Positions 16,977-55,554 of a stretch of 64,000 nt of DNA are shown piece after piece. Position 1 is the first letter of the stretch. Each line of letters begins with the position of its first letter. The position numbers and the translations under genes were made by a program. The notes under the pieces are model-generated. The model saw nothing but the letters and a program-made list of their open reading frames with translations. It was not told the DNA's origin and made no database searches. This DNA comes from Candidatus Coprenecus merdigallinarum (GTDB taxonomy: Bacteria; Bacteroidota; Bacteroidia; Bacteroidales; UBA932), in assembly GCA_018712545.1 (NCBI GenBank), contig DVGV01000036.1, positions 26,404 through 90,403 on the forward strand, read 5' to 3'.

Positions 16977-17663
16977 ATGAAATCAAAAATTTTTGCCTTG
17001 ATACTCATCGTATCGCTGACAGCAGCCTCCTGCGGCAACCGCAATCAGAAAGCCTCCGGAGAGGAAACTGCCGCCACGGCAGAAGCCACAGAACAGACAC
17101 TAACAGACTCAACCGCAATGAACAGCAGCCAGACACCCGACCCGGCGAACCTGCCGGAGGAGCCCATCTACGAGATTCACACGACCGAGGGCACCATCAC
17201 CATCATGCTCTACGCAGACACCCCCCTGCACCGCGACAACTTCGCCAGGCTTGTATCACAGCACTTCTATGACAGCGTGCTCTTCCACCGCGTCATCTAC
17301 AATTTCATGATCCAGACCGGAGACCCCCTGACCAAGAATCCGGCCAACGAAGCCGCCTTCGGCACCGGAGGTCCGGGATACACGATTCCTGCCGAGTTTG
17401 TACCCGGGCACACCCATAAGAAAGGAGCGGTGGCGGCAGCCAGGATGGGAGACACCGCCAACCCCAGGAAAGAGTCCTCGGGATCGCAGTTCTACATCGT
17501 ACACAACGCCGAGATATGCAGCCATCTGGACGGGGAGTACACCGTCTTCGGCGAGACACTCGACGGGTTCGATGTCCTGGACCGCATCGCCGCAGTCAGG
17601 ACAGACGCCAACGACAGACCTCTAAAGGAAGTGCGCATCATATCCATAACCCCTGTAATCTGA
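16977..17663 (+). CDS. Cyclophilin-type peptidyl-prolyl isomerase lipoprotein
   Basis: Lipobox LTAASC; FHRVIYNFMIQTGDP and SQFYI motifs. Confidence 0.9.
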   Translation: MKSKIFALILIVSLTAASCGNRNQKASGEETAATAEATEQTLTDSTAMNSSQTPDPANLPEEPIYEIHTTEGTITIMLYADTPLHRDNFARLVSQHFYDSVLFHRVIYNFMIQTGDPLTKNPANEAAFGTGGPGYTIPAEFVPGHTHKKGAVAAARMGDTANPRKESSGSQFYIVHNAEICSHLDGEYTVFGETLDGFDVLDRIAAVRTDANDRPLKEVRIISITPVI

Positions 17664-18286: not shown

Positions 18287-18324
18287 AAAAAAGTGCGCCT
18301 CTAATCTCACGACTGGAGGCGCAC
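18287..18324 (-). terminator. Intrinsic terminator oriented for the minus strand (end of candidate sRNA copy A)
   Basis: Stem GTGCGCCTC/GAGGCGCAC with a 14-nt loop. A T6 tract is present only on the minus-strand side. Confidence 0.65.
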
Positions 18325-18366
18325 CGCTTAACTTAACCTAAAACTTAACCTATGAAAAAACTATCG
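18287..18366 (-). ncRNA. Candidate sigma-54-dependent small RNA, copy A (ends approximate)
   Basis: The conserved block GCGATAGTTTTTTCATAGGTTAAGTTTTAGGTTAAG starts about 12 nt after the -12 element and runs into the terminator. It is a paralogue of 31300..31380. No ORF on this strand. Confidence 0.45.
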
Positions 18367-18395
18367 CCTTATTCACATACAAACTCCGTGCCAAA
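18333..18395. repeat. Dispersed repeat, copy A of 2 (homologous to 31347..31408)
   Basis: Hand alignment shows TTAACCTAAA(A)CTTAACCTATGAAAAAACTATCGC identical in both copies apart from one indel. A divergent 9 nt follows, then CAAACT-N-CGTGCCAAA. Confidence 0.8.
18378..18393 (-). promoter_or_regulatory. Sigma-54-type -24/-12 promoter, near-consensus (TGGCACGGAGTTTGTA)
   Basis: The minus strand reads TTGGCACG-GAGT-TTGTA. The -24 element is perfect; the -12 element is GT instead of GC. It lies 5 nt after the stop of the upstream gene. Confidence 0.45.
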
Positions 18396-18397
18396 CT

Positions 18398-19687
18398 CTA
18401 ATTAAATCCCCCGACAAAATCCAGCGCCTCTATGCTGAAGCTGAAAGGCACGGTACTGCCGGTCCATGAGTTCCCTCCGTCCTCCGTATAGAGGATATTG
18501 CCCGAAGCTCCGCTCACAGACTTCACAGACAGGACACCACGTCTGGAATCGCGGAGAAATGAGACGGACGAAAGGGTTCCGCCAGGATAGGAGTCAAAAG
18601 CCGGAGTCAGCCGGCTGACTGTTCCGAAACCGTCTGACGATATGTACAGCAGTCCGTCCGCACCGCAGACCCGCACGACCTCTTCCCCGTACACATCTAT
18701 GGAGACGAGGTCCGCAGCTGATTCCAGCACACGCGTCCATGACCGGCCGCCGTCCTCGGAGCGGACTGTTCCCATGGCCCCTGTCCCGGCCATATACAGG
18801 ACTCCGGAGGGCGTTACGGATATGTCCTCCGGCCGCTGCCCTGAATACTCCATGGCCATGCTGACCGTATTCCATGTCAATCCGCCGTCAGCTGAATATT
18901 CCAGTACTGCACTTCCGTCCGTCCCCGTACCGCAGCACCAGATATTCTGACCGTCGTTTGTAGTGACAGAGGAAAATCTCACGGCAGTCTCCGACGTACG
19001 GCACACGCTCCACGTACTGCCTGAGTTGTCCGTCCGGAGAATCAGGCAGGTGTCGGCAGCAGCAGCCCACGCACTTACCCCGTCCAGGGAGATCACTGCG
19101 GACAGGTTTACCGGTTCGGTCCCGCTTAGCGACACTCCCTGGTTGGTCCAGTTCTGCCCTCCGTCATCCGTACGCAGGATAACGGTTCTCCGGTGGAATG
19201 TGTCCACGTCCCCTACAACCCAGCAGCTCCTGTCACTCACGGCGCAGACATCCCGGAGCGTGACATCCGGGACCATTACCGTATTGCCCTGACGGGTCCA
19301 CGACCTCCCGGCATCAGAGGTATAAAGGATGGTACCGTAACCGCTGTCTCCGGCACCCACTGCCCAGCCTGAGGTATATATGTCCAGTGCGACATCGCAC
19401 GTTCCGGTCTGTCCGTGGGGGATGTTCACCTGCCGTACGGTTCCGCGGTATCCGTCGAGCATGAAGCTGATGCCCTGAAGTCCTTCAGGAATGGCCTCGT
19501 AGAGATAGGCTCCCGCCCCGTCGGTATAGACTGCGGAATCTCCGTACACGACTGCGACGGACTCCAGGGGAAGGCCGTCCATGTCGGTCACCACGCCCTG
19601 CAGCGAGCCTATGCCGCCCTCAGGCATCTTGCATGAGAATGTAAGGACAAGTATCAGAAATGCTGTAACAATATCAGTACTTTTCAT
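18398..19687 (-). CDS. Asp-box (BNR) beta-propeller lipoprotein, Ycf48/sortilin-like, with an N-terminal CarboxypepD_reg-like domain
   Basis: Lipobox LTFSC. Six SxDxGxxW repeats (SDAGRSWT, TDDGGQNWT, TDNSGSTWS, SADGGLTWN, SEDGGRSWT, TEDGGNSWT). Start at ATG 19687 (MKSTDIV..), because the longer ORF overlaps the MFS gene. Confidence 0.75.
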   Translation of the reverse strand: MKSTDIVTAFLILVLTFSCKMPEGGIGSLQGVVTDMDGLPLESVAVVYGDSAVYTDGAGAYLYEAIPEGLQGISFMLDGYRGTVRQVNIPHGQTGTCDVALDIYTSGWAVGAGDSGYGTILYTSDAGRSWTRQGNTVMVPDVTLRDVCAVSDRSCWVVGDVDTFHRRTVILRTDDGGQNWTNQGVSLSGTEPVNLSAVISLDGVSAWAAAADTCLILRTDNSGSTWSVCRTSETAVRFSSVTTNDGQNIWCCGTGTDGSAVLEYSADGGLTWNTVSMAMEYSGQRPEDISVTPSGVLYMAGTGAMGTVRSEDGGRSWTRVLESAADLVSIDVYGEEVVRVCGADGLLYISSDGFGTVSRLTPAFDSYPGGTLSSVSFLRDSRRGVLSVKSVSGASGNILYTEDGGNSWTGSTVPFSFSIEALDFVGGFN

Positions 19688-29618: not shown

Positions 29619-29767
29619 GTATTTTTTCAGACACCGCCGGACCTCTTTTCCCACGAACTTTCTATTGAACTGAGAGGATTAACATATTATACCGTTTTAT
29701 GTTGCAATTCTGAATTATTTTATGCTTATTTGCTTAAAATTTGAAACAAACACTAACCTTCATTTTT

Positions 29768-31273
29768 ATGGACAACAACATCCTGAAGTACAACATCAAT
29801 CCTCTCGTCAACGCTATCGGCAAGACACCCGATCAGTTTACGAAAGAGGACATAATCAATTTCATCACAGCCAACGACATCCGTGTCGTCAACTTCCGCT
29901 ACATCGCAGGTGACGGCAGGCTCAAGACCCTCAACTTCCCGGTCAGCAGCCTCCAGTATCTCGACCTGATCCTCTCGTTCGGAGAGAGAGTAGACGGCTC
30001 CAGCCTCTTCTCCTACATCGAGGCCGGCTCGAGCGACCTCTACGTCATTCCCCGTTTCTCAACGGCCTACCTCGACCCCTTCGCTGAGATTCCCACCCTC
30101 GGACTGCTCTGCTCCTATTTTACCAAGGACGGACTGCCCCTGGAGAGCTCTCCCGAGTACACCCTGCACAAGGCTCACGAGGAGTTCAGGAAGACTACCG
30201 GCTACACCTTCGAGGCCATGGGCGAGCTGGAGTTCTACGTCATCTATGACGACGACTGCTGCTTCCCCTCGGAGAATCAGCGCGGATACCATGAGTCCAC
30301 ACCTTTCACCAAGGTCGAGGCATTCCGCACCGAGGCCATGAAGCTCATCTCCCAGGTCGGCGGCAACATCAAGTACGCCCACTCCGAGGTAGGCAACTTC
30401 ACCCTCGACGGCAAGGTGTACGAGCAGAACGAGATCGAGTTCCTCGTATCGCCCGTAGAGTCCGCCGCTGACCAGCTCGTGATGGCCAAGTGGATTCTCC
30501 GCACACTGGCATGGCAGTACGGCTTCGATATCACCTTCGCTCCGAAGATCACCGAGGGCAAGGCCGGCAGCGGTCTGCATTTCCACACCCGCATGATGAA
30601 CGGCGAGCACTCCGTGATGCTCAAGGACGGCCGCCTCTCCGACGAGGCCCGCAAGGCCATCGCAGGCTACATGACCTGCGCCTCCTCGCTGACCGCCTTC
30701 GGCAACGCCAACCCTACCTCCTACTTCCGCCTCGTGCCTCACCAGGAGGCTCCCACCAGCATCTGCTGGGGCGACCGCAACCGTTCCGTACTCGTGCGCG
30801 TACCCCTCGGATGGACCGGCAGGAGCGACATGTCCGCCATCGCCAACGGACTGCCCCAGAATCCCGACATCGTGATGCCCGACAAGCAGACCGTGGAGCT
30901 CCGCTCAGGTGACGGCTCGGCCGACATCCATCTGATGCTCGCCGGACTGGTGACCGCCGCACGTATCGGCTTCGAGCTCCCCGACGCTCTCGAGATAGCG
31001 AAAAAGACCTACGTGGATGTCAATATCCACGACGACAAGAACGCAGCCATCCTCAACTCCCTCGCCCAGCTGCCCACCTCCTGCGCCAAGTCAGCAGACG
31101 AGCTGGAGAAGAACCGCGCCCTCTACGAGGCCAAGGGAGTGTTCTCAAAGAGCATGATCGACGGACGCATCGCGATGCTCCGCGCCTACAACGACGCCAA
31201 CATCCGTGAGGAGACCGCACGCGACAAGGGCCTGATGATGGAGCTTGTCCGCAAGTACTATCACTGCGGATAG
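29768..31273 (+). CDS. glnA: Glutamine synthetase (about 500-aa GlnA-family form)
   Basis: Beta-grasp N-domain (IRVVNFRYIAGDGRLKTL), KAGSGLHFH and NRSVLVRVP motifs. The ATG at 29768 (MDNNIL..) is preferred. Confidence 0.85.
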   Translation: MDNNILKYNINPLVNAIGKTPDQFTKEDIINFITANDIRVVNFRYIAGDGRLKTLNFPVSSLQYLDLILSFGERVDGSSLFSYIEAGSSDLYVIPRFSTAYLDPFAEIPTLGLLCSYFTKDGLPLESSPEYTLHKAHEEFRKTTGYTFEAMGELEFYVIYDDDCCFPSENQRGYHESTPFTKVEAFRTEAMKLISQVGGNIKYAHSEVGNFTLDGKVYEQNEIEFLVSPVESAADQLVMAKWILRTLAWQYGFDITFAPKITEGKAGSGLHFHTRMMNGEHSVMLKDGRLSDEARKAIAGYMTCASSLTAFGNANPTSYFRLVPHQEAPTSICWGDRNRSVLVRVPLGWTGRSDMSAIANGLPQNPDIVMPDKQTVELRSGDGSADIHLMLAGLVTAARIGFELPDALEIAKKTYVDVNIHDDKNAAILNSLAQLPTSCAKSADELEKNRALYEAKGVFSKSMIDGRIAMLRAYNDANIREETARDKGLMMELVRKYYHCG

Positions 31274-31299
31274 GAACCGGGGCCGGAGCCCCAAACGCA

Positions 31300-31380
31300 A
31301 AAGAGAAAAGGACATCAGCCACAGAAACTGATGTCCTTTTTCCTTATTAACCTAAACTTAACCTATGAAAAAACTATCGC
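31300..31380 (-). ncRNA. Candidate sigma-54-dependent small RNA, copy B (ends approximate)
   Basis: GCGATAGTTTTTTCATAGGTTAAGTTTAGGTTAA begins about 12 nt after a perfect -12 element and is followed by a hairpin and T-tract. No ORF on this strand. Confidence 0.55.
31306..31340. terminator. Bidirectional intrinsic terminator (glnA on plus, candidate sRNA copy B on minus)
   Basis: AAAAGGACATCAG / CTGATGTCCTTTT stem with a 9-nt loop and T-tracts on both strands. Confidence 0.75.
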
Positions 31381-31408
31381 TGTACCCTGATGCAAACTGC
31401 GTGCCAAA
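31347..31408. repeat. Dispersed repeat, copy B of 2 (homologous to 18333..18395)
   Basis: See copy A; aligned by eye. Confidence 0.8.
31391..31406 (-). promoter_or_regulatory. Sigma-54-type -24/-12 promoter, consensus match (TGGCACGCAGTTTGCA)
   Basis: The minus strand reads CTTTTGGCACG-CAGT-TTGCA, an exact match to TGGCACG-N4-TTGCW. Confidence 0.6.
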
Positions 31409-32481: not shown

Positions 32482-32493
32482 CCTCAAAGTCAG

Positions 32494-32567
32494 TAGCGAG
32501 ACCCAGGATTGAACTGGGGACCTCATGATTATGAATCATGCGCTCTAACCAGCTGAGCTATCTCGCC
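32494..32567 (-). tRNA. tRNA with anticodon CAT (elongator Met, or Ile2 if lysidine-modified)
   Basis: Folded by hand: acceptor GGCGAGA/TCTCGCT (G1-U72 wobble), D-arm GCTC..GAGC, anticodon stem CATGA/TCATG with loop TTCATAA, T-arm CCCAG-TTCAATC-CTGGG. CCA is not encoded. Confidence 0.85.
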
Positions 32568-32576
32568 ATCATTTTG

Positions 32577-32647
32577 TTGAGCTACCAGGAGTCGAACCTA
32601 GATTTACAGAGCCAGAATCTGTCGTGCTGCCATTACACCATAGCTCA
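32577..32647 (-). tRNA. tRNA-Gln (anticodon CTG)
   Basis: Folded by hand: acceptor TGAGCTA/TAGCTCA (U1-A72), anticodon stem ACAGA/TCTGT with loop TTCTGGC, T-arm with GGTTCGACTCC. Confidence 0.9.
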
Positions 32648-40401: not shown

Positions 40402-40899
40402 ATGACAACGGACAAGATACCTTATCCCAAACAACTCATATCCTTTACGGATCAGATAAGCCTACTCAAACAGAGGGGCATGGTCTTCGGGGATGAAGCC
40501 AAAGCCCTCCGCCTGCTGCATAACATCAGCTATTACCGTTTGAGCGGTTACTGGTATCCTCTTCTGGCGGACAAGGTTTTCGCATCATGGCTTCACTGCA
40601 TCGTGTATGTAAGGAACATCTGTGCGCACCACAGCCGATTGTGGAACAGGTCTTTAAGTATCCGTCCGCAGATGCCGCGTTCTCCGCGCAACACATTCAT
40701 CCCTTTGCCGACCGGCGGAACGCAGCAGATCTATTTTGTATTGAGCATGATTATCTACCTGCTGAACACGGTCAACCCGAACCATTCGCTTGTTCCAAGG
40801 TTCTGCGAGCTTCTGAAGCGTTATCCGTCAATCGATGTACGCGCTATGGGATTCCCGGATAATTGGAAAAACGAAAACCTTTGGAAAAACAGTTTTTGA
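40402..40899 (+). pseudogene. Abi_2 (AbiD/AbiF-like) abortive-infection family gene, internally deleted remnant
   Basis: Family N-terminus (ISFTDQISLLKQRGMVFGDEAKALRLLHNISYYRLSGYWYPLLADK) is joined directly to the C-terminal block VFASWLHCIVYVRNICAHHSRLWNR. It is 165 aa, whereas family members are usually about 300 aa. Confidence 0.65.
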
Positions 40900-44521: not shown

Positions 44522-45514
44522 ATGAAATCCATCCTCGGAATAGGCAACGCCCTTACCGACATACTCGCAGTGCTCCCCGACGACAGTCTGCTCCGGCAGT
44601 TCCACCTGCCGGTGGGGAGCATGCAGCATGTCGACAAGGAGACAGGCAATAAAATCTGGCAGGTACTCAAGAAAATGGGAGCGCAGTACGTGGCAGGCGG
44701 AGCGGCCGGCAACACCATCACCGGCACCGCCGTGTTCGGAATGCCCTCAGGATTTATCGGCAAGGTAGGAGACGACGAGGTCGGCGCCCTCTACCGCTCG
44801 GACCAGGAGCGCAACGGCATCAAGTCGATACTCCTGACCGGCAGGGAGGACTCCGGAAGAGCCTCCGTCTTCATCACTCCGCCCAACGCCGAAAGGACAT
44901 TCGCCACCTACCTCGGCGCCGCGCTTGAGCTCTGCCCCGAGGACCTGAAGCCGGAGTATTTCACAGGATACGATTATTTCTTCATAGAAGGATACTTAGT
45001 GCAGAACCAGCAGCTCCTGAGGCAGGCCGTCAGGCTTGCCCGGGAGGCCGGCTGCTACATCGCCATAGACATGGCGTCATACAATGTAGTGGAGTCCAAC
45101 GACACCTTCCTACACGACATCGTGGAGCAGTACGTCGACATAGTCTTCGCCAATGAGACCGAGGCCGCAAGCTTCACCCGGCACGCCCCCCGCGAGGCCG
45201 TGGACATTATCGCCGGCATGTGCGACATCGCCGTCGTAAAGATAGGCGCCAAGGGTTCCTACATCAGGAGCGGGGACGAATTCCACCACATCGAAGCCTG
45301 CCCGGCCGATGTCAAGGACGCTACCGGAGCCGGAGACCTGTATGCCGCCGGCTTCCTCTACGCCCATGCGCTGGGTATGCCGCTGGACATCTGCGGGCGC
45401 GTAGGCTCCATCACCGCCTCCAAGGTAGTGGAGGTAGTGGGGCCCAAGATAGACATTCCGCGATGGAAAGCCGCCAAAAGAGAAATACGTGCGCTGATTG
45501 CCGAGAACTTATAA
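44522..45514 (+). CDS. PfkB-family carbohydrate/adenosine kinase
   Basis: GGAAGNT N-terminal motif and DATGAGDLYAAGFLY C-terminal PfkB signature. Confidence 0.85.
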   Translation: MKSILGIGNALTDILAVLPDDSLLRQFHLPVGSMQHVDKETGNKIWQVLKKMGAQYVAGGAAGNTITGTAVFGMPSGFIGKVGDDEVGALYRSDQERNGIKSILLTGREDSGRASVFITPPNAERTFATYLGAALELCPEDLKPEYFTGYDYFFIEGYLVQNQQLLRQAVRLAREAGCYIAIDMASYNVVESNDTFLHDIVEQYVDIVFANETEAASFTRHAPREAVDIIAGMCDIAVVKIGAKGSYIRSGDEFHHIEACPADVKDATGAGDLYAAGFLYAHALGMPLDICGRVGSITASKVVEVVGPKIDIPRWKAAKREIRALIAENL

Positions 45515-47320
45515 TTCCAGCATCTTCTTAACAGGCAACGCTGCCTTCTGAGCTGTCTCGGAGGGCAGCGTTACTGTTTTGCGCGGGTTCTGATGCAGCA
45601 GGGTCTCGAAGAGAGAGAGCAGGGTAACTTTCTTCATATCTCCGCAGATCAGATCTTCCGACAGGGGAATCAGTTCCTTGTCCGGAGCCTCCTGTCTCAG
45701 ACGGTGCATCACTCCGAGTTCCGTAGCTATGACAAACTGCCTGCAGTCCGACTCCCGCACGTGGCGGATGATACCGGATGTAGAATAGAAGAAGCAGCGG
45801 GGATTGCCGGTAATCTTCGGATCACCCGAGCAGGCGGCCTCGGGATGAATGAGAATCTCTGCCTCGGGATATTTCGTCAAAGCCTCCTCTACCAGCCTGG
45901 AGGTAATCCGCTCGTGGACATGACAGCTGCCCTTCCACAAGTCCATCTTCAGGCCCGCCGTAGAATTGACATACGCGCCCAGATTGCGGTCGGGAGCGAA
46001 AAGCACAGGTCTGCCACCGGCCTGGGAGCAGACTGTCCGCGCCACTTCTACAGCATTGGCGGAAGTGCAGCATATATCCGTAGCAGCCTTGGTCTGCGCT
46101 GTCGTATTGACATAGGATATCACCACTCCGTCCGAATGGCGTTTTCTCCACGCATGCAGATCCTCTCCGGTTATGCCGTCCGCCAGGGAACAGCCTGCGT
46201 CAGGGACAGGCAGGAGCACTTTCTTGCCGGGACAGAGCACGGCCGCCGTCTCAGCCATGAAGCGGACTCCGCAGAACACTATGACATCCGCATCTGCTGC
46301 AGCAGCCTTACGCGACAGCTCCAGGGAGTCCCCCACAAAGTCCGCAACATCCTGCACCTCTGCGGGCACATAATAATGAGCCAGTATCACGGCATTGTGC
46401 CTGTGCTTCATCTCCTTTATAGCCTTTGTCAGATATTCCGGAGTAAGCTGGATATTCATACTGATGTCCAAGGCCTTGACGGTGTGCGTAAGAGCTCCGA
46501 CGCTTATGAAGTCTACCCCTGTCTGCGCCACTTCGCGCACCCTGCCGAGAGTCATGTTGCCTGATGCCTCGGTTTTGGCCCTGCCGCCGATAATATTCAC
46601 TGCATCGCGCATCATGGGAGTGGACATATTGTCCAGCATGATGATGTCAGCCCGTGCGTCAAGAGCCTCCTTGACCTCGTCAAGCGTGGTGGCCTCGACC
46701 TCTACCTTTATACTTGAGGGCACCCTGGCACGCACCTGTTCCACGGCCCGGGCTATCGAGCCGGCCATCTTGATGTGGTTGTCCTTGATCATGGCCATGT
46801 CGTACAGTCCCATGCGGTGGTTGGTGCCGCCTCCGTCCTTTACCGCCATCTTGTCGGTGACTCTCATTCCCGGGGCGGTCTTGCGCGTGTCGAGCAGACG
46901 GGTATGCGTGCCCTTGAGCTCAGCCACGTACTTAGCAGTCTCGGTAGCTATACCGGACATCCTCTGAAAAAAGTTAAGTGCCGTCCTCTCCGCCTTGAGC
47001 AGAGCCGGATAGCTGCCTTCCACACGGAGTATCACATCCCCCTTGCTCACCCTGTCCCCGTCATGGAGCATCGGTGTCAGCACTATGTCATTCTGGAAAC
47101 GGCGGAATACCCTTTCCACTATCGGAAGGCCGGAGATGACCCCGTCAGCCTTGGCCGTCATGGTGGCCACTGCCGCTGTAGACTCCGGAATAATCGAGTC
47201 TGTGGTAACGTCTCCCGAGGCTATGTCCTCGTCAATTGCCAGATCTATCAATCTGTCCACCAGTTCTTCCCGGCGGAGCTGCTCTGTCGTCATATCTTTC
47301 TGTATTTTATTGTTGTTCAT
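45509..47320 (-). CDS. nadC/nadA: Fused nicotinate-nucleotide pyrophosphorylase (NadC, N-terminal) and quinolinate synthase (NadA, C-terminal)
   Basis: A single 603-aa ORF. NadC motifs: ERTALNFFQRMSGIAT, DTRKTAPGMR, GGGTNHRMGL, IMLDNM, GALTHTVKALDISMNI. These are followed directly by NadA motifs: NAVILAHYY, ADFVGDSLELS, GVRFMAETA, CCTSANA, GSCHVHE. The start could alternatively be the ATG at 47293. Confidence 0.85.
   Translation of the reverse strand: MNNNKIQKDMTTEQLRREELVDRLIDLAIDEDIASGDVTTDSIIPESTAAVATMTAKADGVISGLPIVERVFRRFQNDIVLTPMLHDGDRVSKGDVILRVEGSYPALLKAERTALNFFQRMSGIATETAKYVAELKGTHTRLLDTRKTAPGMRVTDKMAVKDGGGTNHRMGLYDMAMIKDNHIKMAGSIARAVEQVRARVPSSIKVEVEATTLDEVKEALDARADIIMLDNMSTPMMRDAVNIIGGRAKTEASGNMTLGRVREVAQTGVDFISVGALTHTVKALDISMNIQLTPEYLTKAIKEMKHRHNAVILAHYYVPAEVQDVADFVGDSLELSRKAAAADADVIVFCGVRFMAETAAVLCPGKKVLLPVPDAGCSLADGITGEDLHAWRKRHSDGVVISYVNTTAQTKAATDICCTSANAVEVARTVCSQAGGRPVLFAPDRNLGAYVNSTAGLKMDLWKGSCHVHERITSRLVEEALTKYPEAEILIHPEAACSGDPKITGNPRCFFYSTSGIIRHVRESDCRQFVIATELGVMHRLRQEAPDKELIPLSEDLICGDMKKVTLLSLFETLLHQNPRKTVTLPSETAQKAALPVKKMLEL
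45537..45580 (+). terminator. Possible terminator for the PfkB gene, embedded in the 3' end of the convergent nadC-nadA ORF
   Basis: AACGCTGCC / GGCAGCGTT stem (18-nt loop) followed by ACTGTTTTG. The loop is large, so the call is weak. Confidence 0.3.
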
Positions 47321-48872
47321 TTACTTTTCTGGTAGACAGCTTTTCTCCTGCCCGCTGCACTGTATGCACTGCAAACTCTTCCCGCAACTGCGGATAGTCC
47401 TCCCTGTAATGCCCTCCGCGGCTCTCCCTGCGGAAACGGGCGCCGGTCATAATCAGCCGTGCCACTGTCAGCAGCTTGCGTGAAGCCTCGTCATAGTACT
47501 CGTTCCGCTCGGATCCCAGTTCCCTCAGTTCTTTCTTCACCAGATTGAGACCCGTGGAGAGCAGCAGCTCCGAACGGATGATGCCGGAACAGTTGTTCAT
47601 CATGTGGGCAATCTGCCGCTTGAGGGCGAAATACCTCTCCGCCTGCGATTCATCCTTATGATAAAGCTTCGCGAAATGAGGAATCCTGTCCAGAGGGCCG
47701 GCCTCGACCGACCTCTCTATGGCCCTGCGCCCGAATACGAGGCACTCTATCAAAGAATTGGAAGCCAAGCGGTTGGCTCCCATTATACCGGTGGAGGCAA
47801 TCTCTCCGCACACATAAAGCCGGCTTATATCGGAGCGTCCCCACAGATCCGAGGCCACCCCTCCCACGGTGTAATGAGCTGCAGGGGCGACCGGTATCCT
47901 GTCGGTAAGGTCGTATCCATACTCAGCGCACTTTGCCAGGATATTGGGGAAACGGCTGCGGATCTTCTCCGGATCCAGATGCTTCAGGGACAATTCCACA
48001 TACGGTCTGTCATCCAGAGCCATCTGCTTGAATATCGACCGGGCCACTATATCCCTCGGAGCCAGCTCCGCCAGCTCGTGTATGGGAAGCATGAAGCGCC
48101 TTCCTTCCTTGTCCAGCAGGTATGCGCCCTCTCCCCTCACCGCCTCACTTATAAGGAATGCCTTCGGTGAGTCCTCTATATACAGGGATGTAGGATGGAA
48201 CTGGATAAACTCCATGTCGACTATCCGGCAGCCGGCCTTGTAGGCCATGGCTATACCGTCTCCTATCGTAGTCTCAGGATTGGTGGTTCGGGTATAGATG
48301 GCGGAAGTACCTCCTGAGGTCAGGAAGGTGTGCTCTGCATAGATAAGTTCCTCGCATCCTTTCTCCTCGTCCCAGCAGCGCACCCCATAGCAGACCCCGT
48401 CCTCAGTCAGAAAGTCGATTACCGACATGTTCTCCCTTATCGTTATATTCGGATCGGACTGCACCTTCGATATCAGGAACTCCGTGATATAACGGCCTGT
48501 GGAATCTCCTCCGGCATGGAGAATGCGCTTACGGTGATGCCCGCCCTCCAGACCGAGGGACAGCTTTCCGTTCTCGGTGTCGAACTTCATGCCCTCCGCG
48601 ATAATCTCCTTGATGCGCTGCGGTCCCTCCTGCACCAGCACCTCCACCGCCCTGTTCTCGCACAGGCCGCGCCCTGCGATAACGGTATCGGTAAAATGAA
48701 TCTCGGGATTGTCCTCTATATCGGTAACTGCGGCTATCCCGCCCTGGGCATTGTAGGAGTTGCTGTCCCTCAGGGCCTTTTTAGTGACCACCAGAACAGG
48801 ACCGTAAGCCGATGCCTTATGAGCGGCATACAGTCCCGCCAATCCGGAGCCTATGACCAAATATTTCCACAT
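47307..48872 (-). CDS. nadB: L-aspartate oxidase
   Basis: VIGSGLAGL FAD motif, HYTVGG and RFRRESRGGHYRED. The ATG at 48872 is preferred, because the longer ORF would run into tsaE. Confidence 0.9.
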   Translation of the reverse strand: MWKYLVIGSGLAGLYAAHKASAYGPVLVVTKKALRDSNSYNAQGGIAAVTDIEDNPEIHFTDTVIAGRGLCENRAVEVLVQEGPQRIKEIIAEGMKFDTENGKLSLGLEGGHHRKRILHAGGDSTGRYITEFLISKVQSDPNITIRENMSVIDFLTEDGVCYGVRCWDEEKGCEELIYAEHTFLTSGGTSAIYTRTTNPETTIGDGIAMAYKAGCRIVDMEFIQFHPTSLYIEDSPKAFLISEAVRGEGAYLLDKEGRRFMLPIHELAELAPRDIVARSIFKQMALDDRPYVELSLKHLDPEKIRSRFPNILAKCAEYGYDLTDRIPVAPAAHYTVGGVASDLWGRSDISRLYVCGEIASTGIMGANRLASNSLIECLVFGRRAIERSVEAGPLDRIPHFAKLYHKDESQAERYFALKRQIAHMMNNCSGIIRSELLLSTGLNLVKKELRELGSERNEYYDEASRKLLTVARLIMTGARFRRESRGGHYREDYPQLREEFAVHTVQRAGEKLSTRKVNEQQ

Positions 48873-53083: not shown

Positions 53084-53856
53084 TCACAGTCCGTCATCTC
53101 ACAAAATATTACAATGGACAGCCGGCCGTCAAGGACTTTTCTGTAGAATACCTCCCGGGGCAATGCTCGCTTGTCATCGGTGCCAGCGGTTCCGGAAAGA
53201 CAGTACTGCTCAAATCCACTGTAGGTCTGCAGGACCCGGACGAGGGAGAGGTACTTTTCGACGGAACGGTCTTCAACCGCCTGAGCCCAAAGGAGAAAAA
53301 AAAGATACACAGCTGCATGGGAATGCTCTTCCAGGGCAGTGCCCTCTTCGATTTCGCCACCGCAATGGAGAATGTGATGTTTCCCCTGGAATTTTTCTCG
53401 AATATGAACCGGAAAGAAAAAATTGAGAGGGCACGCTTCTGCCTGCACCGTGTCGGACTGGACGGCGTGGATGACAAGTATCCGTCCGAACTGTCGGGCG
53501 GAATGCAGAAAAGAGTCGGCATAGCGCGGGCCATCGCCCTCAACCCAAAGTACCTGTTCTGCGACGAGCCCAACTCGGGTCTGGACCCAAGGACCTCCGT
53601 CATGATAGACCGATTGATTCAGGAGATAACCCGGGAATACAACATCACTACCGTCATCAACACCCATGACATGAACTCAGTCATGGAGATAGGTGACAAA
53701 GTGGTGTTCATCCACAAAGGGGAAAAGTGCTGGGAAGGCTCGAAGGACAACATCATGACTTCCGAGTGCAGCGAACTGGACGAGTTCATCTTCTCATCCC
53801 GCATGGCCCATGAGCTCAAGATCCGATATGAAAGCGGAAACCCATCTGAAGGCTGA
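53080..53856 (+). CDS. mlaF: MlaF-family ABC transporter ATP-binding protein
   Basis: GASGSGKT Walker A, LSGGMQKRV signature, LFCDEPNSGLD Walker B. Confidence 0.9.
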   Translation: MITVRHLTKYYNGQPAVKDFSVEYLPGQCSLVIGASGSGKTVLLKSTVGLQDPDEGEVLFDGTVFNRLSPKEKKKIHSCMGMLFQGSALFDFATAMENVMFPLEFFSNMNRKEKIERARFCLHRVGLDGVDDKYPSELSGGMQKRVGIARAIALNPKYLFCDEPNSGLDPRTSVMIDRLIQEITREYNITTVINTHDMNSVMEIGDKVVFIHKGEKCWEGSKDNIMTSECSELDEFIFSSRMAHELKIRYESGNPSEG

Positions 53857-54994
53857 ACTGGAGAGGCTGTTCGGTCCTGACTGAGTAAGGCTGGCCGCAG
53901 TCAAAGAAATAGGTCAGCCGCGGGTCCACATACAGTCCCAGGAAATCCAGGAAACGGTATTCGAAGCCAAGACCTACATTGGCTGACCACTGGACGCCGC
54001 GGGCTTCCTTTTCCTGCTGGTATTTCACGGAATATAAGTCAGTAATACTGTACGAGAGCCTGACTGCACGCTCAAGCATACCGCCTGCACCGGCATAGAA
54101 CGTAAGCCTGTCATTGGAAAGGATATTGACGTAAAAGTTAAGCGGAATGCCGAGATAGTGCACCGACTGGTCGACGGATGCCTGGTACTGACGGTCCACC
54201 AAAGCCTCGTAGCTGCTTTTTAGAAAGGTGTAGTTGAGTCCGAGACCGACTCCGAGACGGTCGTTGAGGAAAGAATATTTCAACTCAAGACCAACAGACA
54301 CGGGGAAATGGTGCGCAGGCTCGGAAACAGGGACGATACCGGTATAAGAAGCTGAGGCTCCGGAACCCCAGGTATAGTCAGGCTGGGAAAAATCCACATT
54401 GCCGGTTGCACGGGTAGGCGAGACATTGCCTCCTGCAGACATGGAAAAAGAAGGCCGCATCCGCTTTTTCCGTACCGGTTCCTCACTCTGCCTCACCAGT
54501 GCTGTATAGGAATCCATGCCGGATGTACGGTCATAGATCGTAGGAGCACCTCCGGAACGGGCGGCCACAGGGTCTGCAGCCTCCGTCCCGGACGGCAAAC
54601 CGGGCTGAGCTCCGGTTCCGGGCCTGGGCGCAGCTATATCTGCGGGCTTCCCGGACATGGAAGTCGTTGCGGGAGCCGTCAGACGGGGGAGAGTCTCCAA
54701 ATAAATATCCGTCCTGACCGAGGTTCCGACGGCCGGCGCCTCCGGAACTTCCACTTCCGCCAGCTGCATTTCCGGAGTTCCGGCCGCATCATGCTGCGGA
54801 CGCAGGAAAACCGAAAGCGCAAGACACGCCGCTACTGCAGCTGCGGCAGAGACATACGCAATCCTCTTCCATACAGCCCTTACACGCATCCTGCCGATAC
54901 CCGACTCGATCCTGTCCCATACTTCCGGGGCAGGGATTTCGGAGCAGGAATCCAGCATTTCCTTAATCTTCTTGTCGAATAATTCCTCTTTCAT
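53816..54994 (-). CDS. Putative anti-sigma factor with one TM helix and a C-terminal outer-membrane beta-barrel-like domain
   Basis: ATGA-coupled to the upstream ECF sigma gene. It has a cytoplasmic about 40-aa N-terminus, the TM helix IAYVSAAAAVAACLALSVF, a Pro/Ala-rich linker, and a C-terminal about 200 aa of alternating beta pattern ending ..LQMGFRFHIGS. Confidence 0.6.
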   Translation of the reverse strand: MKEELFDKKIKEMLDSCSEIPAPEVWDRIESGIGRMRVRAVWKRIAYVSAAAAVAACLALSVFLRPQHDAAGTPEMQLAEVEVPEAPAVGTSVRTDIYLETLPRLTAPATTSMSGKPADIAAPRPGTGAQPGLPSGTEAADPVAARSGGAPTIYDRTSGMDSYTALVRQSEEPVRKKRMRPSFSMSAGGNVSPTRATGNVDFSQPDYTWGSGASASYTGIVPVSEPAHHFPVSVGLELKYSFLNDRLGVGLGLNYTFLKSSYEALVDRQYQASVDQSVHYLGIPLNFYVNILSNDRLTFYAGAGGMLERAVRLSYSITDLYSVKYQQEKEARGVQWSANVGLGFEYRFLDFLGLYVDPRLTYFFDCGQPYSVRTEQPLQFSLQMGFRFHIGS

Positions 54995-55554
54995 TTTCTA
55001 CTTCTCTTTTCCTGCAACTTCTCCTGCAGCCATACCCTGGCCCTGCTGAGCTGTGATCTTGACGTACCTTCGGATATCCCTAACTCCCGGGATATCTCTT
55101 GATGCGAATACCCTTCTATCACGCTCATATTGAACACAGTCCTGAAACCTTCCGGCATCTGCTGCATCATCCTCAGGATATCCTTGCCTCCTATGCCGGA
55201 CAGTATATCCTCTCCGCTGCTCACACTGCGCGCCGCCACGTCATCCACATCCGCCGCTCCGCGGAGGACATCTCCCTTGCGCAGTTTCATCAAGGCCGTA
55301 TTGACAAATATCCTCCTCATCCATCCCTCGAGGGAACCGGTTCCGCTGAATGTGGAAATTTTCGAGAAAACCGTTATAAAACCCTCCTGCAGCAAGTCCT
55401 GAGCCTCGACCCTGTCTTTGGAATACCGCAGACAAACGACAAACATACGGGAGGAAAACCTCTCGTACAAAGCTCTTTGAGCTCTTCTGTCCTGTCTGGT
55501 GCATCCCAGGACCAGATCTTCTTCAGTACTTAGGTCAATACTGCCTGACGACAT
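54991..55554 (-). CDS. ECF-type RNA polymerase sigma-70 factor
   Basis: Region 2 (DLLQEGFITVF) and region 4 HTH (IEGYSHQEISRELGISEGTSRSQLSRAR). Confidence 0.9.
   Translation of the reverse strand: MSSGSIDLSTEEDLVLGCTRQDRRAQRALYERFSSRMFVVCLRYSKDRVEAQDLLQEGFITVFSKISTFSGTGSLEGWMRRIFVNTALMKLRKGDVLRGAADVDDVAARSVSSGEDILSGIGGKDILRMMQQMPEGFRTVFNMSVIEGYSHQEISRELGISEGTSRSQLSRARVWLQEKLQEKRSRK

Follow-up and report, generated by a model that had tools for sequence, protein, structure and literature searches.

Two elements on the minus strand of the window, the 64-kb stretch of DNA analysed here in its entirety, each combine a sigma-54-type motif, a conserved RNA block and a terminator hairpin. The question raised by the first of them, copy A, is whether it constitutes a gene in its own right and, if so, which sigma factor would read it and what its RNA would do. 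Comparison with related loci leads us to consider it likely that copy A is an independent gene for a FopS-like trans-acting small RNA (sRNA) of approximately 81 nt, with a sigma-54-type promoter, belonging to a multi-copy family of gut Bacteroidales. Copies A and B are genuine, conserved sRNA genes, and the reading of their promoters as sigma-54-type is well supported by comparison. The window has a G+C content of 57% and is 91–92% identical to a locus (L004) from a chicken-gut metagenome-assembled genome (MAG) labelled uncultured Bacteroidales; the sequencing runs that contain it are chicken or bird gut metagenomes.

Layout of the two copies

Copy A lies just 3′ of the stop codon of a lipoprotein gene, and its parts are arranged as follows.

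18398–19687, minus strand: BNR/Sortilin-like lipoprotein gene (MKSTDIVTAFLILVLTFSC...), upstream of copy A (Pfam annotation)
18378–18395, minus strand: predicted promoter, sigma-54 type (exact motif search; same offset in orthologues and about 100 family members)
18367, minus strand: predicted transcription start, ±2 nt (placed 12 nt downstream of the −12 T at 18379)
18326–18367, minus strand: single-stranded 5′ region (seed), GCGAUAGUUUUUUCAUAGGUUAAGUUUUAGGUUAAGUUAAGC (centroid fold and alignment fold; FopS 5′ alignment)
18292–18325, minus strand: terminator hairpin (fold z −3.3; covariation in the alignment)
18287–18292, minus strand: U-tract (T6), where the RNA 3′ end is expected (sequence read)

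On the upstream side, a TAG stop codon (18400–18398) is followed by AGT and then by TTGGCACGGAGTTTGTA (18394–18378), within which the sigma-54-type motif TGGCACGGAGTTTGT occupies positions 18393–18379. Between the stop codon and TTGGCAC lie 3 nt, and not the 5 nt given in the sequence-only reading that preceded this analysis. That reading had described a perfect −24 element and a −12 element with TTGT in place of TTGC, as the sequence confirms: the −24 element is TTTGGCAC, with GG at 18392/18391, and is followed by N5 and the −12 element TTGTA, with GT at 18380/18379. The divergent, non-conserved spacer after the −12 element measures 10 nt (TGTGAATAAG), rather than 9 nt. The RNA block GCGATAGTTTTTTCATAGGTTAAGTTTTAGGTTAAG begins at 18367, and the sequence from there to 18326 is GCGATAGTTTTTTCATAGGTTAAGTTTTAGGTTAAGTTAAGC. 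This 5′ region of approximately 42 nt is unstructured and A/U-rich, and holds two AGGUUAAG repeats and UUUUUUCAU, the exact complement of AUG plus AAAAAA. The hairpin arms GGUGCGCCUC and GAGGCGCACU (18325–18292) form a 10-bp stem, a bulge, an AGUC/GAUU helix and a GUGA tetraloop cap; a simple terminator scanner overlooks this bulged hairpin, which was recovered by folding. The T6 tract follows at 18292–18287, and the observation that a T-tract exists only on the minus-strand side holds, the plus-strand flank of the hairpin being CGCTTAAC, without a T-run. The predicted RNA extends from approximately 18367 to 18287, a length of about 81 nt.

The operon upstream of copy A has the order GH31–GH84–GH20–nucleoside:H+ symporter–BNR lipoprotein on the minus strand. 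The BNR gene is thus its last gene, as had been proposed, while the composition given earlier (GH31–GH84–GH20) lacked the nucleoside:H+ symporter gene. The adjacency of the BNR gene and copy A is kept in L001, L002, L003, L006, L009, L011, L163 and L198. Downstream of copy A lie a convergent nitroreductase gene and a cyclophilin gene.

In copy B (31408–31299, minus strand) the parts follow one another in the same order, in agreement with the earlier view that the two copies share one architecture.

31391–31408, minus strand: predicted promoter, sigma-54 type, TTTGGCAC, N5, TTGCA (exact motif search)
31299–31380, minus strand: sRNA with predicted start at G31380 (folding, Rfam search)

The copy B motif TGGCACGCAGTTTGC occupies 31406–31392, and the promoter sequence is also given as TTGGCACGCAGTTTGCA. 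The seed is single-stranded to approximately 31341 and is followed by a hairpin (31340–31306) and a U-rich tail. The gene 5′ of copy B encodes a secreted protein without a Pfam match, and copy B is convergent with the glutamine synthetase gene glnA (29741–31273, plus strand), its hairpin lying 33 nt past the glnA stop codon of the opposite strand. This hairpin has T-rich flanks on both sides (window 31273–31345), so it may terminate both glnA and the sRNA. The glnA–sRNA arrangement is also found in L004, L010 (Alistipes UMGS654) and L008 (Muribaculaceae). A tandem of tRNA-Met(CAT) and tRNA-Gln(CTG) genes (32493–32647, minus strand) lies directly 5′ of the secreted-protein ORF that precedes copy B.

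A conserved family of structured RNAs

A 24-nt piece of the RNA was found in 11 other species. The 19-nt core TTTTTCATAGGTTAAGTTT has 127 occurrences in at least 119 species-level genomes, nearly all of them uncultured Bacteroidales; these 127 family members are those among the matches listed. Their hosts are chicken, ruminant, horse, termite and human guts, and the genomes are labelled Candidatus Coprenecus, Candidatus Cryptobacteroides, Muribaculaceae, Alistipes and Prevotellaceae. All 127 members share one plan, comprising a 5′ end of (C)GAAUAG or GCGAUAG, the segment UUUUUUCAUAGGUUAAGUUUUAGGUUA, a G+C-rich hairpin and a U-rich tail. Several genomes carry more than one copy: two are present in the 64-kb window, two each in L008, L181, L213, L218 and L235, and at least three, on two 8-kb pieces (L004, L198), in the nearest MAG.

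From the predicted start, both window copies fold into approximately 42 unpaired nucleotides and one terminator hairpin. An alignment of 22 sequences has compensatory changes in nine of the ten consensus stem pairs, a loop conserved as U-GNGA-A and 31 invariant columns in the 5′ region. G–U pairs make up 12% of the stem pairs, on the minus (sense) strand only, and the sense strand folds better than the antisense strand in 91 of 127 members.

The opposite strand admits another reading, in which the conserved block would be a plus-strand leader and the start of a small protein (ATGAAAAAACTATCG..., MKKLS...). The plus strand does resemble an ideal initiation region of Bacteroidetes, with ATG AAA AAA after it; however, the ORF ends after six codons in 23 of 127 members and its lengths are scattered, no peptide is conserved beyond MKKL, the −24/−12 block shifts the frame (offsets −33, −34 and −35), and the G–U pairs and T-runs lie on the minus strand. 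The early stops, the want of a peptide beyond MKKL and the frame-shifting block led us to reject this coding reading, which we find hardly credible. Stem covariation, the G–U pairs and the non-conserved antisense ORF therefore fix the strand as that of the sRNA. The −24/−12 elements conserved at a fixed distance, the covariation and the lack of conservation of that ORF also give strong support to the original proposal of two paralogous small RNA genes on the minus strand, each having a −24/−12 (sigma-54-type) promoter and a terminator of its own.

The sRNA body (core and hairpin) is also present on five predicted viral contigs from IMG/VR (L246, L247, L248, L249 and L251), with neither promoter motif upstream. 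A FopS copy in a Bacteroides phage has already been published, and the viral-contig copies parallel it.

Six members (L130, L143, L160, L208, L217 and L232) have an extra small 5′ hairpin before the core, GTGCGAAAGCAC (GCGCGAAAGCGC in L143). They come mostly from termite-gut Prevotellaceae MAGs, L143 being labelled only Bacteroidales; their 5′ end is longer than in the rest of the family, and a TAccTTTG box is located further upstream.

In many other species the sRNA lies just 3′ of a gene for a cyclophilin-type prolyl isomerase (...DIIDRIA.VATD...), among them L141, L161, L166, L175, L177, L201, L216, L225, L239, L244 and others, and in another group of loci it lies 3′ of a gene ending in ...HEVVWVHEMMDMPESDRII. 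The cyclophilin gene of the window (16977–17663, plus strand) is 0.7 kb from copy A.

A sigma-54-type promoter at a fixed distance

The family loci were gathered by the RNA core alone, so the region upstream represents an unbiased sample. GG-N10-G(C/T) is present in 101 of 127 members, with the GG 33–35 nt before the core (offset −33 to −35). Exact matches to TGGCAC-N5-TTGY number two in the 64 kb, both of them before the sRNA copies, with 0.25 expected, and the strict sigma-54 motif occurs 44 times in 0.96 Mb of family loci, 43 of these before the family RNA. In an alignment of 64 non-redundant loci on the GG, in which only columns not forced by the search pattern were counted, the consensus is T-GGCAC-R-G-NNN-TTGCA-A. 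The unforced columns are T(−1) in 57/64 loci, followed by C (60/64), C (55/64), T (50/64), C (52/64) and A (52/64), and the information content is approximately 0 bits in the 12 nt upstream, in the spacer and in the 8 nt after the −12 element.

The published sigma-54 consensus is TGGCACG-N4-TTGCW (Barrios et al. 1999, as cited in PMC9723704). Copy B matches it fully and copy A with one mismatch, the GT at −12, which is conserved among copy-A orthologues and occurs in copy-B orthologues too. The suggestion of the sequence-only reading that TTGT as opposed to TTGC reflects a difference in strength between the two paralogues finds no support in this distribution. The gene rpoN is known in Bacteroidota (PMC9723704, PMC12316311); sigma-54 −24/−12 promoters have been experimentally validated in the phylum (PMC9723704) and have been reported for groES/grpE of B. 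thetaiotaomicron (PMC12316311). From the motif we infer that transcription of copies A and B would be sigma-54-dependent.

With TGGCAC-N5-TTGCA at a fixed distance, the predicted sigma-54 start site coincides with the onset of RNA conservation. Alignment position 25 lies 12 nt after the −12 C and the conserved RNA block begins at position 26; likewise, conservation between copies A and B begins at the predicted start, 18367. A second type of promoter leads to the same place. In 12 of 127 members, the canonical Bacteroidetes TAnnTTTG box is present alone, without the sigma-54 motif, and ends 3–4 nt before the same CGAAUAG, and eight members carry both a decayed TGGTAT-N5-TTGT and a TAnnTTTG box formed within the spacer. 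The TAnnTTTG box is absent at both window copies. Since each of the two promoter types stands at its proper distance, the same first nucleotide is indicated. Of the arguments at hand, this convergence speaks most strongly for a promoter, with predicted RNA starts at about G18367 in copy A and about G31380 in copy B.

Several rumen MAGs (L161, L162, L166, L202 and L221) show the decayed TGGTAT-N5-TTGT together with a TAtaTTTG box inside the former −12/+1 spacer, as if this one RNA gene had changed its sigma factor in situ.

Metatranscriptomes, available as assembled contigs only, give a 30–100× depth peak on the core, which reaches up to 1500 against 5–8. The spike appears to the same extent in runs whose type is unknown and may be DNA, and the contig ends coincide with branch points where species diverge; the peak is therefore attributed to collapsed copies from multiple species and not to expression.

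Could the RNA be only the 3′ UTR or terminator of the upstream operon, released by read-through or processing, with TGGCAC-N5-TTGC serving as a regulator-binding site or RNA-level signal? No terminator was found between the BNR lipoprotein gene and copy A, some of the metatranscriptome contigs run through promoters, and FopS-14 of B. thetaiotaomicron is derived from a 3′ UTR (PMC11697453). Against this, the motif keeps its distance despite many unrelated upstream genes or intergenic A/T-rich DNA, every informative position is that of the sigma-54 consensus with exact GG-N10-GC spacing, and where the motif is absent a housekeeping box replaces it at the proper distance, which is promoter behaviour. 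We hold the 3′-UTR explanation to be quite improbable and retain the promoter reading.

Little probability is likewise given to a promoter read by the housekeeping sigma-ABfr or by an ECF sigma factor. The motif contains two TTTG strings (TTTGGCAC...TTTGYA), TTTG occurs in both Bacteroidetes housekeeping boxes, and copy A has GT at −12. However, the TA of TAnnTTTG counts as missing because the spacer columns carry approximately 0 bits, and the TTTG strings are 13 nt apart rather than about 20. A start 5 nt past the second TTTG would produce a variable leader, the true TAnnTTTG box lying 9–10 nt further downstream, and the ECF-like PM2 promoter of gibS is quite different. The sigma-54-type assignment is therefore preferred.

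The enhancer-binding activator would be encoded elsewhere. Pfam annotation of all large window ORFs gave no sigma-54 component; no rpoN gene was found in the 64-kb window or the 8-kb family loci, no RpoN box or GAFTGA motif in the window or 244 loci, and no GAFTGA activator protein near any of 128 related loci. Upstream of copies A and B, no shared activator site was found, and the enriched upstream k-mers represent coding homology (the cyclophilin gene and one other gene).

Relation to FopS and GibS

Among the regulatory RNAs of gut Bacteroides, FopS and GibS, which control polysaccharide-utilisation loci, are the best understood. FopS is a paralogous sRNA family of Bacteroides thetaiotaomicron (Rfam RF04319; PMC11697453), and GibS is a Bacteroides sRNA induced by GlcNAc and also by mucin (RF04182; PMC7366714). 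As published, FopS is a family of the Bacteroidaceae with sigma-ABfr promoters, and GibS has the non-canonical promoter PM2 (PMC11697453, PMC7366714).

At gathering thresholds, Rfam reports only two tRNAs in the whole window. In a permissive search, FopS is the best match for both copies over the full-length model (1–71), with 26.2 bits and an E-value of 0.046 for copy A and 26.9 bits and 0.022 for copy B, neither of which reaches the gathering score of 56 bits. GibS ranks second for copy A only, where its 19.5 bits fall short of the gathering score of 115; the matches that come after FopS at copy B are microRNA models on the hairpin. The same permissive search gave no match at nine other family loci. 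The R1/R1′ seed aligns over UUUUUCAU-GG...AGGUUAAUAA, with a few indels parting two conserved blocks, and the FopS 5′ consensus is identical to copy B at 27 of 32 positions, a value equalled by none of 2,000 shuffles (0–2 of 2,000 over the seed tests). An nhmmer profile built from the 5′ part of the family missed gibS when run against 0.87 Mb of Bacteroides loci; this profile is over-specific, because its members were collected by an exact 19-mer. Since the Rfam scores are sub-threshold and the HMM misses gibS, we class the family as a distant sister of the Bacteroides FopS/GibS sRNAs and not as a member by Rfam's rule.

The resemblance to FopS, seen in sequence and predicted fold, comprises a length of about 81 nt (about 70–85 nt in FopS), a single-stranded 5′ seed starting ...GUUUUUCAU.G and continuing ...AGGUUAAUAA, one terminator hairpin whose loop is GNGA, multiple copies, the order Bacteroidales and the full-length covariance-model alignment to both window copies. 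The family differs in its scores (26–27 bits against 56), in being found outside the Bacteroidaceae (in MAGs labelled Coprenecus, Cryptobacteroides, Muribaculaceae and Alistipes), in about five extra 5′ nucleotides, and in a sigma-54-type promoter where FopS has canonical sigma-ABfr boxes (TAnnTTTG at −7).

With GibS, the family has in common the R1-like 5′ sequence UUUUUCAUAG and a non-housekeeping promoter, and there is a thematic link through GlcNAc, the inducer of GibS, in that copy A closes an operon of the GlcNAc-releasing glycosidases GH84 and GH20. GibS, however, is 142 nt long, with a second seed (R2) and extra hairpins, whereas the RNA described here has about 81 nt and one hairpin. 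Its PM2 promoter, GAACAAA ... TGTTATAT, was confirmed upstream of gibS in 115 species; it is unrelated to the −24/−12 elements and absent at the window copies, so a gibS-type promoter is ruled out there. Within the 60 nt upstream of GTGTTTTTCATAG in L012–L127 (gibS loci of Bacteroides, Phocaeicola and Mediterranea, 115 species), PM2, which was published without an assignment, is conserved in the form GAAC(A/T)AA near −33 and (T/C)GTTATAT near −10; judged by eye, it is similar to promoters of ECF-type sigma factors (GAAC ... CGTT-like). Identity of the family with S. copri SrcF was also ruled out, SrcF being 272 nt long and Segatella-specific. A literature search for the core sequence returned nothing relevant, and a sigma-54-type version of a FopS-like sRNA appears undescribed in the literature searched.

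Proposed mode of action

The FopS-like sRNA of copy A probably blocks translation starts, as judged from its relatives. Sigma-54 RNA polymerase, opened by an enhancer-binding activator encoded elsewhere, would start at about G18367; since this promoter class needs an enhancer-binding ATPase, the RNA would be made only on a specific signal. Its free 5′ seed (UUUUUUCAUAGGUUAAG...) would pair with translation initiation regions in which AUG is followed by AAAAAA, starts that exported or surface proteins, SusC-like transporters for instance, would typically have. Pairing would block ribosome loading, as for FopS in B. thetaiotaomicron, which pairs with translation initiation regions and blocks initiation (PMC11697453). 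Modulation by an RbpB-type RRM protein is possible. As copy A is not preceded by a terminator, transcripts that run on from the upstream operon probably stop at the copy A terminator as well, and these could yield a processed form of the RNA in addition.

Target sites were sought by duplex scan, seed complement and ATGAAAA starts, and none was convincing in the window or loci; as the search extended over only 64 kb and 8-kb snippets, little can be read into this negative outcome. No RRM protein gene was found in the window or family loci.

Another possibility is that the sigma-54-driven RNA does not chiefly pair with mRNA but acts as a decoy, in which case its AGGUUAAG repeats would bind an RbpB-type RRM protein in the manner of CrcZ or CsrB. 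The single-stranded part does contain two or three tandem AGGUUA(A/G) repeats, RbpB is bound by the 5′ parts of FopS and GibS, RbpB and FopS are mutually antagonistic (PMC11697453), and the target search above was negative. Yet in vitro FopS-10 is by itself enough to block the translation of susC (PMC11697453), the seed UUUUUUCAU is perfectly complementary to a start codon, and the limited range of the target search weakens the point drawn from it. A role chiefly as decoy is therefore considered unlikely, and pairing with translation starts remains the preferred mode of action.

The genomic context of the copies, with copy A at the GlcNAc glycosidase operon and copy B convergent with glnA in several genera, offers no more than hints. 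The signal could be nitrogen status (copy B and glnA) or envelope or host-glycan cues. We advance as a tentative model, to which we give slightly less than an even chance, that in many uncultured gut Bacteroidales a sigma-54/enhancer-dependent signal controls FopS-like sRNAs, present in several copies, which in turn silence the translation of surface and exported proteins, and that the sigma factor has been repeatedly exchanged in situ. If true, this would represent the first sigma-54-dependent sRNA regulon in Bacteroidota, and the exchanges would run from sigma-54 to housekeeping promoters within the family, with an ECF-like promoter for GibS.

The comparison places a sister family of FopS/GibS in further gut Bacteroidales, most of them uncultured, from chickens, ruminants, termites and humans, with most of its members under a sigma-54-type promoter, a promoter class unreported for FopS/GibS. 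It provides a natural promoter-swap series on one RNA and a concrete, testable entry to what sigma-54 senses in gut Bacteroidales, and promoter and seed together could serve as a compact marker for the regulon in metagenomes.

Other genes in the window

An ORF of 603 residues (45509–47320, minus strand) joins NadC (residues 37–288) to NadA (300–602) and appears to be a fused quinolinate phosphoribosyltransferase–quinolinate synthase gene of NAD biosynthesis; it adjoins a gene for an L-aspartate oxidase-like flavoprotein (47307–48872). An ORF of 165 residues (40402–40899, plus strand) matches the Abi_2 (abortive infection) Pfam profile over only its last 24 or so positions, and hence is possibly a remnant. 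A gene for an ECF-type sigma factor (54991–55554, minus strand) is followed by one for a protein with an outer-membrane beta-barrel domain (53816–54994, minus strand); no link between this pair and the sRNA was seen in the window.

Comparison with other sigma-54 systems

Sigma-54-dependent sRNAs include Qrr1–5 of Vibrio, CrcZ/CrcY, GlmY and NrsZ. The Qrr RNAs are paralogues with their own sigma-54 promoters, a shared single-stranded seed and an intrinsic terminator, and systems of this type convert the output of enhancer-dependent signalling into post-transcriptional control. To our knowledge, the Bacteroidota, a different phylum from that of Vibrio, are without Hfq. The family described here likewise consists of paralogues behind their own sigma-54-type promoters, with a conserved single-stranded seed and a terminator, but it has no relation to Qrr in sequence or structure, and the analogy is one of principle only; no Rfam match to Qrr was obtained for the two window loci even at E ≤ 10. 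Qrr is mentioned in the FopS study (PMC11697453). At luxO–qrr1 and cbrB–crcZ the activator gene adjoins that of the RNA, whereas none adjoins it here.

Within the Bacteroidota, SM4 of Flavobacterium psychrophilum comprises sigma-54 promoters with typical −24/−12 elements, which drive protein-coding operons of a regulon for envelope stress, protein quality control and exported proteins (PMC9723704). No sRNA of the FopS-like family is described there (PMC9723704). The two nevertheless have −24/−12 elements in Bacteroidota in common, and many of the family loci adjoin a cyclophilin gene.
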